Shown: positions 3,786 to 50,793 of the stretch, piece after piece
Position numbering within the stretch: the first letter of the stretch is position 1
Layout of the letters: each line of letters opens with the position of its first letter
Source: Eledone cirrhosa
Lineage: Eukaryota
Assembly: GCA_964016885.1 (NCBI GenBank)
Contig: OZ024745.1
Location: 133,982,001-134,046,000 of the forward strand
Reading direction: 5' to 3'
DNA length: 64,000 nucleotides
The notes under the pieces: generated by a model
The model's input: only the letters and a program-made list of their open reading frames with translations
What the model was told of the DNA's origin: nothing
The model's database searches: none
Position numbers and translations under genes: made by a program

Positions 3786-3850
3786 ATTTTATCTGATGAG
3801 GACGTACTGTTGAACTTGATTCAGTACCTCTGAAATATGTATAATAAAAT
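3786..3850 (+). ncRNA. Minimal type I hammerhead ribozyme (C-C mismatch class), PLE terminal-repeat relic
   Basis: ATTTTAT-CTGATGA-GGAC GTACTG..CAGTAC CTCT-GAAA-TATGTA-TA|ATAAAAT; 7-bp stem I, intact core; flanks resemble 26870-27070. Confidence 0.85.
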
Positions 3851-5420
3851 TTAATTGATCACAAGAATATCTAGTTTGTTAATATTTGAATTAATATATA
3901 TATATATATATATATATATACATATCCATATCTATATATATATATATCTATATCCATATATATATAGAGATATAGATATATATATACATACATACACACA
4001 CATATACACTCACACACACACACATACACTCACACACACACACATTTATATCTATACACATATACATAAATATACGTATACATACATACACATATATATA
4101 CATACATATATATACATACATAAATATACATACACACACATATATACATATATATATATATACAAATATATACATACACAGACACACACACATATATATA
4201 TATATATATATATATGTGTGTGTGTATATATATATATATATATACACACAATCATTATCAGTATTTTATCCCTAATGAAAGAAATATTAGTTTCGAATGA
4301 ATGCCTATACACTATCTTTTCGTAGCATCTTCTGATCACAACAAATCACTCAAGCTAATTTCATCTGTTAATGATGTTTATCGGGAAGATATATATTTTT
4401 TTCATAAAGTTACTGTTATTCTCTTTAACTTACTTGTGTGAAATTAATTAGCGTTAATATTTATATTTTTGAAGAGTATGTTAAGTTGCGACAAGCTACC
4501 TTATACTATATATTTGTCTTTTTGTGTTCGACACTAGAATTACGCCGAGGTGGATTATGACTTTCATCATTCGGGGTTGATAGTATAAAGTACTAATCAG
4601 GTATGAGATGAAATCGATATAATCGAATGTCCCTTCTCGTAAACTAGTTAGCCGTGTTCTGTTTGTTAGAAATTAATTGATATAAACAATGCACGAAGCC
4701 GAATAATAAGAATATTTATAGAGAAAATTCACATTTTTTGTCTGTAGTTTTCTTTCTCTGTTGGTGTTGACCTTAGCTGTGTCACTATCAATAGTGGATG
4801 TATCAGGGAAGAATCAGTTCGTTCTGTTTATATATATATATGTGTGTGTGTGTGTGTGTGTGTGTGTGTGTGTGTGTGTGTGTGTGTGTGTGTGTGTGTG
4901 TGTGTGTGTGTGTGTGTGTGTGTGGTATTAAAAAAAAGTGGTCAAGCATAGAAATGCTATAAAGATAGCCTATAAAATAAGGTGAAAACCCTATTTTATA
5001 CGCTATGAAGAATATTTGAGGAATATACTTTTATTCTACCTAACCAGTAACATAAAACTCGAAGTAAGTTCCTGGTTATTTGAAGCTGCATCGAGGTTTC
5101 AATCTTAATTGAAGATCATTCATTTCATTTAGACTGATCCTAGCTTTGAGAAAGTCATTCATATTATCATCTCTTCCCATTTGCCAGCTTCCTATAATAT
5201 GCATTTTCTTGTGTAATATCGTGGACAACTAATCTCGATTCTAGGTTAATGTCAATTGTTTTCACTAATACAGTTAAAGAACACTATTAACGTATATATA
5301 TATATATATATATATATATATATATATATATATAGAGAGAGAGAGAGAGAGAGAGAGAGAGAGAGAGAGAGAGAGAGAGAATCATTAGAACATCTGACTG
5401 ATAAAATGACAAGTCAGTCA

Positions 5421-5642
5421 ATCATATTGGTGGCCTCCCCACCGCCCCGGCGGACAGAATGGAGAAGGCGTTTCCCCGGAGGACGCCAAGGGAGATGCAC
5501 TGGAAAAGCCATTCCAGCTCGCGAGGCTCACACCTGCGGCTGGCCAGCTCAGCGCCTATGGTGGTGAATAGGGAGGTAGCCCTAGGGCCGAGGATACCAG
5601 AAGTCTCCACTGCCAAGGGTACAACCGCAAACCTGTCGGAGA
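5421..5642 (-). mobile_element. CRE-like non-LTR retrotransposon, short 3' fragment
   Basis: LAVETSGILGPRATSLFTTIGAELASRRCEPRELEWLFQCISLGVLRGNAFSIL, near-identical to the C-terminus at 47640-47830. Confidence 0.85.
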
Positions 5643-7286
5643 ATGGTTAACCATTACAATAAAGCAGGTAAGTCGTGATTTATCTTCTTCCCTGTAATGT
5701 TATATGGTTATTTTCTCTGTTTCTATTTTGTGACAGAGTCAATTTTGGAAAATAGAGTAGAGATATATCCAAGACGTGGTCACTATTGTTTATTACAATA
5801 GTTACTCCACTGCATCTGGCACTGCTAATGTCGGTAAAGAAGTTACAAACTCTGCTCAAGTTTCTTATAGAACTAATAGGCTTTGTTGTGCTTATTCTTT
5901 TGCTGCAAGTAATATACTCTACATGTCTGGGTATTTCAGGATAATTTTACAATGTCACACTAGTTTAAGTATACGTCGTAGTATATTTTAGTATAAGTTC
6001 TAATATAACATCTAGATAACAACTCTGTCTGACGAACGATCCAGACGTATATTATTATCGTCTGTGATCCAGAAACCTTTGGTAATGGAGTAGTTATATT
6101 TTGTGGTGTTCACTTTCCAATTAAATAGCTCTGTTCTATACATGAGCACTCCTTTTTCCCTTGTTTTTCCTTTGGAATTATGTAACGCATAAGTTCTAGT
6201 ATATTCGACATTTCTATACTTCAGTGAAATAGATTATAGTTTATTCTATTAATTACACCTCTCCAACGCTCTCTTTCTTTCTCAGGACCTCTCTCGTTGA
6301 TAAATGGAAAACTTGTAGTTTGTTTCGTGTAGGTGACTGTCCAACCTTTTCCGTCTACATTGCTAATTTACCCGGCTAATTCCTAGTTCCACATATTCCA
6401 CTATTTTAATGTTAATATACGAATTCTGACAGTTATTTACGACAAAATCAAACAAATTTCAAATATTTAAACTTGTCCAATTTCCTGATAATTTTATCGA
6501 TCTATTGTTATGTTTTCTATTATTGTTGTTTTTATTATAGTGTATTTTATTATATAAGCTAATGTCTGCATCTATTATACTGGCCAATACTTCAGCATCT
6601 AGGTTTTAAATTCCAGCGCCCACTTTATCTACCATCTCTATGTGAACGATTAAATTAGTAGCAATTCCGAACTCCGTTAGTCGATTAGATCAACAAACAC
6701 TCTTTATAACAAAGATTGGTGTAATTCCAGATAATATATGACTCTGTTATTTGATGTGAATTAGCTCAAAGTTAGCCTAGATTAAATAGACCTTTGATCA
6801 GAGATCTATATATCCTATCTTGTTTCAAGCTAGTGTCCATCAACTACATCTAAATTACAATAATTTAAGGAGCTCGGGACTGCGTACGGTTTATAATTTT
6901 TCATCCCATTAGTAAAATAAGTTGGATTACTTTGAATAAATAATGAATGAATATTACATAATTTATCTACTAAATTTCGTGGTTGTTGATATTTTGTTTA
7001 TTTAAAGATTCGCTTCTTTAAAATTACTGAAATGTCAACACTTCCGGTTGGCATCGCTTAAATAAACATACTAATTTTCTGTCACTAATTTTCTCCTAAT
7101 GCAGTTTATATATAATATCGTCTTTTTTAATGTATCATGGATTACGTTACTGATTAAATAAGACAGTGTAACGCAGTCTTCGTTCAATTTCTATTTATTA
7201 TATATTGTCAATTACGATGTTATTTGATGTATCATATCTACATGTATATATACCTGCGTATAATATCAATATACACACTACACATG

Positions 7287-7324
7287 CTAGCAGAAAACCA
7301 CCCCAAGGGTGGTTTTTCTGCTAG
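7287..7324. repeat. Short near-perfect hairpin CTAGCAGAAAACCACCC-caa-GGGTGGTTTTTCTGCTAG
   Basis: Inverted repeat read directly. Confidence 0.7.
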
Positions 7325-9004
7325 TTATTTTAATAAATGATCATTTTTTTAAAAGCTTTATTGGATGCGATTTGAAAGAGATTTGTCTGCTATTTCTAAC
7401 AGATAGAATGGCCATGTAGAGGCTCCGTCATTTACTACAGATGCATGGTTTGTTAATATAGGCGTGTAATTCTGTGCTAAAGTTTTCATTTTAGGCTTTT
7501 TTAGGGGAAGAAAAAGTGTTAGCAGCAAAAACTAAATATTTCAAAATGTGATTGAAATCTATCAATCTCTCTCTCTCTCTCTCTCTCTCTCTCTCTCTCT
7601 CTCTCTCTCTCTCTCTCTCTCTCTCTCTCTCTCTCTCTCTCTCTCTCTCTCTCTCTCTCTCTCTCTCTCTCTCTCTCTCACTGTCTTTATGTTTCTATAT
7701 ATACAAACAGACAGATACACATATATATGTATATATATATATATATGTGTGGGTGTGTGTGGGTGTGTGGGTGTGGGTGGGTGTGGATGTGTGTGTGTGT
7801 GTGTGTGTGTGTGTGTGTGTGTGTGTGTGTGTGTGTGTGTGTGTGTGTGTGTGTGTGTGTGTTGATTACACATAATATATATATGATATCACAACACATA
7901 ATATATATATATGATATTACAACAGAGTGGAATATATGATTAAGGTAAGGTAGAGGAAAACTTGAATTTTTGTGTCCATACAAATTATATAGATTCGAGA
8001 ATCTAGCAACATTTTTTTGATCATCTAAACTATATACTTCGCAGTCAGATACTGTGATCATTTCTTAGCTGCAACTATAATTCTTTGCAAATCTTCCAGT
8101 ATTAGTATACGTATGTACGTATATATATATATATAAATGCATATATATATATATATGTATTTATATATATATATGCATTCGTATATATATATGTACATTC
8201 GTTCATATATATATATATATGCATCTATATATATATATTTATATGTGTGTGTGTGTGTGTGTGTGTGTGTGTGTGTGTGTGTGTGTGTGTGTGTGTGTGT
8301 GTGTGTGTGTGTGTGTGTGTGTGTGTGTGTGTGTGTCTATATATATGTGTGTGTATGAGTGTATATTTATATATAAGTGATATTGAATAAGAATTTCATG
8401 GAATATATCATTAAAGTTGAAATGTCTGGGTGTGCTATAATGTTAAATAGAATAACAGAAATATAGTGAATACAATTACAATATAAACAGCGACTAGTTT
8501 AGTTTGATCTCAATCTAACGTGTATTTAGCTCTTGAAGATATATATATATATATATATATATATATATATATATATATATATATATATATTGTCATGAAG
8601 ATTTAATCTCTAATTATCGGCTACATTCACCCTGGATATTGTCTAGAACCTCTTATTTACAACTTCAGGAATGGCATCATTCTGTAATATTTAAAGATGT
8701 GTATTATCAACAATATTATTAGTTATGTGAAGCTTAAAGATTTTAAACATTTCGCAATAATTTCACATGATATTTCAGAAATAGATATTATATCTGTATA
8801 TTGAGATTTCTTATATATATTTAAGGTCTTAAATTTAAGGTAATGATTAAATTCGTAATGGTATTGGGTTTTGAAGCAGCGATGAACACTTAATATACAT
8901 GTAATGATTTAATAAGGGAATCTACTGGTAATTGTCGCCATTCCTTCTTCTAGCTTACATGTAACTTTTATGAGTTTGTTTCTGTTTTTTTTTTGTAACA
9001 CAGT

Positions 9005-50118: not shown

Positions 50119-50154
50119 TCTTAACGTTTCGGACGCTAGTCCTTCATCGGAAAA
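50119..50154 (-). ncRNA. Hammerhead variant (CCGATGA core)
   Basis: Minus strand TTTT-CCGATGA-A GGAC TAGC GTCC-GAAA-CG-TT|AAGA. Confidence 0.55.
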
Positions 50155-50453
50155 AAGAATAAGAAATGAGAAAGATTGAGGTGACGGGCGGGGTGGAATT
50201 GGAAAAAATGTTTTTAGAAAATGTTTGATATTGGCGTTTTGTGTATGATATATTTTTTTAGAAAAGTGGATGATGGAGTGCGTCTACACATATATATATA
50301 TATATATATATATATATATATATATATATATATATATATATATATATATATATATATATATATATATATATATATATATATATATATATATATATATATA
50401 TATAAAATAAAGTTAAATAAAAGTCAAATGATTAAAATTTAGCTTCGTTTATT

Positions 50454-50508
50454 ACTGCTATATATATTTCAGTGACAGCCATCTTTGGCTGTGACCTCTT
50501 CAGGCAGT
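50454..50508 (-). ncRNA. Minimal type I hammerhead ribozyme (left arm of palindrome)
   Basis: Reverse complement of 50739-50793. Confidence 0.9.
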
Positions 50509-50738
50509 TTGAATTAGTATGGTATAGACAAGTACATATGTTGTTTAGGTGTATGATATTGTCAATACTCTGATATGCCCAGTTCCTTGTTGGGTTGTTA
50601 ATTCACTGGGGAACTGGAGTCATATGACTCCAGTTCCCCAGTGAATTAACAACCCAACAAGGAACTGGGCATATCAGAGTATTGACAATATCATACACCT
50701 AAACAACATATGTACTTGTCTATACCATACTAATTCAA

Positions 50739-50793
50739 ACTGCCTGAAGAGGTCACAGCCAAAGATGGCTGTCACTGAAATATATATAGCAGT
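50739..50793 (+). ncRNA. Minimal type I hammerhead ribozyme (C-C mismatch class, right arm)
   Basis: ACTGC-CTGAAGA-GGTC ACAGCC AAAGAT GGCTGT CACT-GAAA-TATATA-TA|GCAGT. Confidence 0.9.

Follow-up and report, generated by a model that had tools for sequence, protein, structure and literature searches.

Three predicted type I hammerhead ribozymes, here called HHR1, HHR2 and HHR3, lie on the forward strand of a 64,000-nucleotide stretch of the Eledone cirrhosa genome (GenBank assembly GCA_964016885.1, contig OZ024745.1, positions 133,982,001 to 134,046,000; the window), and they raise the question of why ribozymes whose stems differ in sequence should share one defect, a cytosine facing a cytosine at the fourth position of stem II. 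A preliminary description of this DNA had called the three hammerheads unrelated in sequence and the C-C mismatch fixed, and had read the changes around it as structural selection that might define a hammerhead subclass. Across the genome, no subfamily found pairs the 5' C of stem II position 4: the base facing it is C, A or U, but not G. Judged by sequence relationships, the three hammerheads are diverged members of one Hydra-clade lineage of Penelope-like elements (PLEs), from which their likeness is inherited. Selection to keep the mismatch is very probable, and selection on the identity of the C itself is probable.

An unpaired cytosine in stem II

All three hammerheads were recovered where they had first been placed, with the CUGANGA core, the GAAA and the NUH triplet intact around the three-way junction. 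The triplet is AUA, a natural hammerhead cleavage triplet (PMC1636495), and the TATRTAT-A that follows GAAA in each supplies an 8-base self-complementary stem III plus this triplet. Proximal stem II has three base pairs (GGA/TCT in HHR1, AAG/CTT in HHR2, GGT/ACT in HHR3), followed by C opposite C and a distal stem, which in HHR2 contains one bulged G. The first pair (R10.1-Y11.1) is G·U in HHR1 and HHR3 and A-U in HHR2; even U·U at this place is a published working variant (PMC3088659). Folding prediction returned stem II of HHR1 and HHR3 as first described, and the 66-nt HHR2 motif likewise, although the HHR2 hairpin alone favours a shifted register; the folding z-score of HHR3 was -2.6. The window holds 14 matches to CTGANGAN{10,40}GAAA where 2.6 are expected, a number reached in none of 100 shuffles. 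Rfam hammerhead models gave no match to the window among 150 of 168 hits listed, none at E<=10 around HHR2 and HHR3, and none at gathering score in 10 loci.

The pattern CTGANGAN{16,40}GAAATATRTATA has 80,342 matches in the 3.0-Gb genome versus 148 for a reversed control, and a stem III variant, ATGYRCAT, searched with position 4 left open, has 23,911 versus 0, suggesting that hammerheads of this lineage number about 100,000 copies. In the main stem III class, position 4 is C·C in 71,294 matches, C·A in 2,936, non-C·C in 3,281, C-G in 366 and non-C·non-C in 362, while C·U accounts for at most about 2,100, a figure obtained by subtraction and not by direct count. Genome copies are not independent, and what counts is the state held by whole subfamilies. 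Most C·A matches belonged to two real subfamilies (about 71 and about 7 of the 100 matches listed, sorted by eye), and among 100 listed matches of the ATGYRCAT variant about 93 were C·U and 6 were C·C. The C·U group is young, with 95-98% identity between sampled copies and stop-free open reading frames (ORFs) of about 800 codons. Position 4 is thus neither freely variable across the genome nor a fixed C-C pair, as whole subfamilies hold C·A or C·U.

Candidate subfamilies with other states at position 4 did not hold up. The 100 C-G matches listed look like scattered single mutants of C·C types. Rows reading GGAT...ATCC, about one fifth of the 100 non-C·non-C matches listed, had suggested a U-A subfamily, but could be explained by CpG decay within the C·A subfamily at a level of about 4%. 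Matches with a base other than C on the 5' side numbered 4,942 (control 99), and the 100 listed were mutants, nested cores or chance. Some HHR1-like subfamilies do hold a second CTGANGA inside stem II, which yields nested matches (for example G000:C1:46055671-46055706). C·C combined with other stem III starts gave 895 matches versus 364 in the control, with no new family among the 100 listed.

For consensus building, 186 copies, drawn from 212 extracted matches and others added later, were grouped by hand into 36 subfamilies, after removal of duplicates, copies with deletions, chance matches and a handful of singletons. Position 4 was paired in none of the 30 resolved consensuses (C·C in 25, C·U in 3 and C·A in 2); the remaining six of the 36 were ambiguous there, mostly from deliberate sampling of mutant copies. 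Its neighbours were nearly always paired, position 3 in 35/35 consensuses with three pair types (U-A, G-C, A-U) and position 5 in 34/36, as were position 2 (33/34) and position 6 (34/34); the weak first pair was formed in 25/33. Replacing the mismatch with C-G brought a predicted gain of 4.0-6.7 kcal/mol in all 10 hairpins folded, and no subfamily has adopted it.

In an alignment of 15 real copies, 89% of cells were paired and 47 two-sided changes were counted, exceeding all of 500 shuffles and all slid controls. Two-sided changes touched all four stem I pairs, five of six stem II columns and one of three stem III pairs, where an A-U to G-C change in 3/15 copies kept the palindrome. The 5' C (C23) was the sole invariant column outside the core and stem III. 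On a tree built from the flanks, it changed 0 times, its 3' partner three times and the other stem II columns three to nine times, while 89 flank columns changed 5.6 times on average and none stayed unchanged. Simulation at the flank rate left the 5' C unchanged with P ~0.0007 under neutrality and ~0.015 if any mismatch serves. The C has also outlasted a deep divergence, because ORFs beside other ribozyme types of the lineage are only 42-55% identical to that of the HHR2 group.

Several points weigh against so strong a reading of this constancy. Pair 3 is also slow (three changes on the tree), and at the rate of the slowest stem columns the same simulation gives P of 0.06-0.19 if any mismatch serves and 0.01-0.07 under neutrality, so that the first, and even the second, is no longer rejected. 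The flank tree aligned poorly between deep groups, so that its flank change counts are inflated. The subfamilies were hand-grouped, all come from one genome and share ancestry, and several samples were chosen by patterns that fix or exclude the C. What stands of the claim of structural selection is that the neighbouring pairs covary around a position that never pairs; the part that gives way is the fixed C-C pair, since what is kept is the unpaired 5' C.

The elements that carry the hammerheads

Common flanks, intermediates and related ORFs tie together hammerheads that had been taken for unrelated. Among 100 matches listed, intermediates chain the three stem sequences together, and 30 fetched loci have in common GGTATGTC upstream and GAGTGCT...TGTTG...CCAAC near the 3' end. 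The 730 bases upstream of HHR1 are 82% identical to one genomic copy (L087), which has an endonuclease-region remnant farther upstream on the same strand, and 77% identical to another (L079). The copies lie within (TA)n, frequently in inverted pairs, and run 50-150 bases beyond the predicted cut site; the longer ones lead into reverse transcriptase (RT)-endonuclease ORFs, with stop-free frames of 775-821 codons at three loci (L481, L497, L498) and partial ORFs upstream of HHR2-type and HHR3-type copies. They are dispersed or in inverted pairs and joined to ORFs, which sets them apart from non-LTR retrozymes, defined by non-coding tandem repeats of 150-400 bases. One RT fragment (L088), considered as the ORF of HHR1, has a long branch and may be misjoined or belong to another element.

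The ORFs show DKT, YRDD, a CxCX5C linker, and CxxC plus CxH in the endonuclease, with no CCHH; DKT, the linker and CxxC plus CxH are marks of the Hydra clade in the account of Craig et al. (2021, PMC8557442). Three ORFs have RLRWT or RLRWI near the N-terminus where RWK is expected. Pfam gave no match on the four proteins tried, and the RT and C-terminal GIY-YIG-type endonuclease were assigned from motifs and homologs. Of 191 homologs found, the best 120 are 29-45% identical, and the few informative names are Argonauta and Hydra. The ORFs that accompany mismatch-type ribozymes cluster, in a quick 61-row RT tree, with five outside proteins (Shimodaira-Hasegawa-like approximate likelihood ratio test, SH-aLRT, 99). 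A second Hydra-type family of the same genome, with a short, fully paired stem II, falls apart from this clade. The mismatch is thus a lineage-wide feature, and its inheritance within one retroelement lineage makes it more a lineage variant than an independent subclass.

The coordinates of the three hammerheads, their elements and other features of the window are given in the table. The HHR3 insertion contains a palindrome, 50403-50844, with arms of 221 bases, beyond which the main copy extends for a tail of about 95 bases; inverted truncated copies joined to a main copy are an arrangement described for such elements (PMC8557442).

Features of the window (positions numbered from its first base; limits of elements approximate where marked)
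Feature	Position	Strand	Remarks
HHR1	3786-3850	+	Predicted type I hammerhead; cut site placed by standard hammerhead consensus
HHR1 parts	stem I 3786-3792/3844-3850; core 3793-3799; stem II 3800-3831; GAAA 3832-3835	+	
HHR1 stem III	3835-3842	+	ATATGTAT; predicted cut after A3843
HHR1 unpaired 5' C (position 10.4)	3803	+	Opposite C3828
Element with HHR1	3079-3894	+	5'-truncated 3' end of PLE (3' untranslated region and pseudo-long terminal repeat, pLTR), flanked by (TA)n tracts; limits approximate
HHR2	26971-27036	+	Predicted type I hammerhead; core 26979-26985, stem II 26986-27016
HHR2 GAAA	27017-27020	+	Predicted cut after A27028
HHR2 unpaired 5' C	26989	+	Opposite C27013
Element with HHR2	26684-27170	+	5'-truncated 3' end of PLE, (TA)n at end; left limit is junction with another family
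HHR3	50739-50793	+	Predicted type I hammerhead; stem I ACTGC/GCAGT, core 50744-50750
HHR3 parts	stem II 50751-50776; GAAA 50777-50780	+	Stem III ATATATAT; predicted cut after A50788
HHR3 unpaired 5' C	50754	+	Opposite C50773
Inverted HHR3	50454-50508	-	Exact copy; fourth hammerhead of same type, non-independent example
Insertion with HHR3	50403-50939		Penelope-type; inverted 5'-truncated copy 50403-50623 (-) joined to main copy 50624-50939 (+), between (TA)n tracts
Linker and endonuclease remnant, second Hydra-type family	25807-26683	+	Frameshifted; joined at ~26683 to HHR2 element
Short hammerhead	49851-49873	-	
Hammerhead of another family	6029-6090	+	Long stem II with internal defects; stem III ACCTTTGGT
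Further cores, short paired stem II	52640 (+), 53024 (-), 49873 (-), 60938 (+), 61519 (-), 61619 (+)		61519 and 61619 form an inverted pair
GIY-YIG-type endonuclease remnant	56069-56377	+	Pfam PF01541, E 0.0007, below curated cut-off
GIY-YIG-type endonuclease remnant	60066-60281	-	

The window holds at least five other hammerhead types within its 64 kb. The frameshifted remnant just upstream of the HHR2 element was rejected as the source of its ORF, since relatives of the remnant end in a different hammerhead, the short one at 49851-49873. The family of the hammerhead at 6029-6090, met again in one other locus (L067, 2693 and 3018, minus strand), has no fixed C at pair 4.

Other features recur in the flanks. 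In many subfamilies the core is preceded, at a distance of 20-70 bases, by GGTATGTC or its variants GGTACGTC and GCATATC (in the window at 3766-3774 and about 26932-26941), a sequence that resembles a 5' splice site; Drosophila Penelope has an intron at the corresponding place. AATAAA lies just 3' of the cut site (for example at 50794-50799 and 27032-27037 in the window). In 26 of 32 subfamilies most copies have it no more than 26 bases from the predicted cut, compared with 4.1 in shuffles, a count inflated by the kinship of the subfamilies. It is possibly a poly(A) signal that cleavage would remove. Around each of the three hammerheads, stem I is predicted to continue past an internal loop into a distal helix, the sequence of which differs by subfamily.

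Possible roles of the unpaired cytosine

What might the C do? By established hammerhead chemistry the RNA would be cut after AUA. The two-base loop should leave stem III of a monomer unstable, and the self-complementary 8-base stem III would permit dimers, a route that has been proposed for PLE ribozymes (PMC4209133, PMC6765202). The long distal stem II would hold the arm together while the mismatch of C with A, C or U would create a weak point three pairs up from the junction; there the variable 3' base could give way and the C be contacted by outer stem I. In natural hammerheads the docking of stem I with stem II takes place a few pairs up from the junction; in the Schistosoma ribozyme a stem I pyrimidine stacks in front of the 5' C of a C:A opposition, at the foot of loop 2, and displaces the 3' base (PMC2632901). 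We favour docking because a 5' C that stays fixed while the 3' base can be replaced matches the Schistosoma contact, one pair lower. The full reading, in which the hammerheads of the lineage cut after AUA, likely as dimers, and the C is kept unpaired, likely as a docking site for stem I, has in our estimate a little less than an even chance. A docking contact with stem I is our best guess, and we rank protein binding and a brake on cleavage below it. The bolder proposal, that about 100,000 hammerheads use a new activating contact in which the loop 2 docking motif gives way to an invariant unpaired C within a long stem II, is doubtful; if true, these PLE hammerheads would be some of the first to have a defined peripheral cleavage switch.

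Docking has its difficulties. No pseudoknot or G partner for the C was seen by eye, and no base covaries with the replacement of C·C by C·A or C·U. Some groups have an unbroken AU helix of 7-8 pairs as stem I, others 4-5 pairs and a loop. In the known docking motif the key base is a conserved 3' A that follows four pairs and has its U partner in loop 1 (PMC2632901), whereas the fixed base here is a 5' C that follows three. PLE hammerheads assayed so far cut weakly (PMC4209133).

The absence of an RNA partner would also fit a reading of the unpaired C by the RT/endonuclease of the element, or by a host protein, to choose its RNA, with cleavage chemistry independent of the C. Base-specific conservation fits such recognition, as does the fact that the trait follows one RT clade from which the second Hydra-type family, fully paired in stem II, is separate, and PLE hammerheads have been suggested to need other factors in vivo (PMC4209133). 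The proteins, however, have diverged to the extent given above while the C has not changed, and the quick RT tree includes in the same clade the five outside proteins, whose ribozymes may be of any type; we consider protein recognition quite unlikely. The mismatch could instead act as a brake that weakens the foot of stem II, making cutting slow or dimer-only and leaving uncut RNA as template. In 6/10 cases a C-G pair lifts the predicted pairing of proximal stem II, otherwise 0.1-0.6, to about 1.0; pair 1 is also weak, and the 3' base tolerates all but G; genomic copies that continue past the cut site indicate that uncut or re-joined RNA gets copied. By nearest-neighbour rules, however, the stem would be weakened just as well by A·C, U·C or A·A, yet the 5' base has never changed, to which simulation at the flank rate gives a P of ~0.015 where any mismatch would do. 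Such a brake is, in our view, unlikely.

It is improbable that the C has no function of its own and is either an ancestral accident passed down in the lineage or constrained by an overlapping signal at the DNA level or on the opposite strand. The data do come from one lineage in one genome with few deep splits, and slow columns such as pair 3 exist. Yet neighbouring pairs have changed on both sides repeatedly, every flank column has changed, and the bases flanking the C vary, with no DNA motif conserved around it.

Relation to known hammerheads and elements

The elements resemble Hydra-clade PLEs, as far as the sections of Craig et al. (2021, PMC8557442) used for comparison describe them, in the C-terminal endonuclease, DKT, the CxCX5C linker and CxxC plus CxH around a conserved E and N, and in their (TA)n targets, inverted truncated copies, and 3' hammerhead with a short palindromic stem III and an often weak first stem II pair. 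They differ in longer 3' untranslated regions (about 1.7 kb at locus L071), in RW[T/I] for RWK, and in the internal stem II mismatch, which appears in 0/26 of the Hydra rows of File S2 of that paper, Hydra-1_oBim included.

Like the minimal, small-helix-III type I hammerheads of metazoan PLEs covered by the comparison with Cervera and de la Pena (2014, PMC4209133), those of the present lineage lie in pLTRs, have a long helix II and a palindromic helix III, are predicted to dimerize and form many consensus families per genome. They depart from the minimal criteria of that study, in which an extra base follows A9, the first pair is G10.1-C11.1 and helix II is uninterrupted; neither the extra base nor the G-C pair is the rule here, and the published descriptor (loop 2 <=10, GAAANNUH) is unable to match the present motifs. 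In Fig. S3 of the same study, C·C at pair 4 occurs in 0/56 rows and another mismatch in 2/56, U·U in Clonorchis 2 and C·A in S. purpuratus 1 (the latter possibly CpG decay), both unremarked in the passages compared. The diminished palindromic stem III and the PLE association also recall the dimer-cleaving PLE variants of Lünse, Weinberg and Breaker (2017), as relayed in PMC6765202.

Metagenome contigs searched with an RT alignment held no relatives. Pattern scans of metagenome (110 stretches) and viral contigs (120) gave at least 231 matches, of which 16 passed a loose stem I or stem II filter and none both; we read these matches as chance, and they have no bearing on other animals, whose genomes lay outside the scans. 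Four contig sets aligned to HHR3 revealed nothing on ends or expression.

We found no published description of a C-C mismatch in hammerhead stem II, with Lünse et al. (2017) and Arkhipova (2017) outside the comparison, and the terms mismatch, helix II and stem II are absent from the available text of the bioRxiv preprint 10.64898/2026.07.22.740005. Hammerheads in PLEs, palindromic stem III and weak first pairs are already published, while the conserved unpaired C, which appears neither in the Rfam matches nor in the two PLE alignments above, is apparently new, a judgement that is provisional. Searches requiring a perfect stem II miss very large hammerhead families. The presence in PLEs of hammerheads with poor cutting in vitro still calls for an explanation, and a base outside the core, conserved like the core, gives a direct handle on it: C·C, C·A and C·U all occur naturally, young copies retain intact ORFs, and a few point mutants could separate docking, protein recognition and braking. 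There are parallels, too, in the canonical docking hammerheads of Schistosoma, satellite tobacco ringspot virus (sTRSV) and chrysanthemum chlorotic mottle viroid (CChMVd): in the part of PMC2632901 compared, domain II likewise has an unstable opposition near its base, which is C:A in Schistosoma, and in CChMVd (-) an internal loop takes the place of loop 2.

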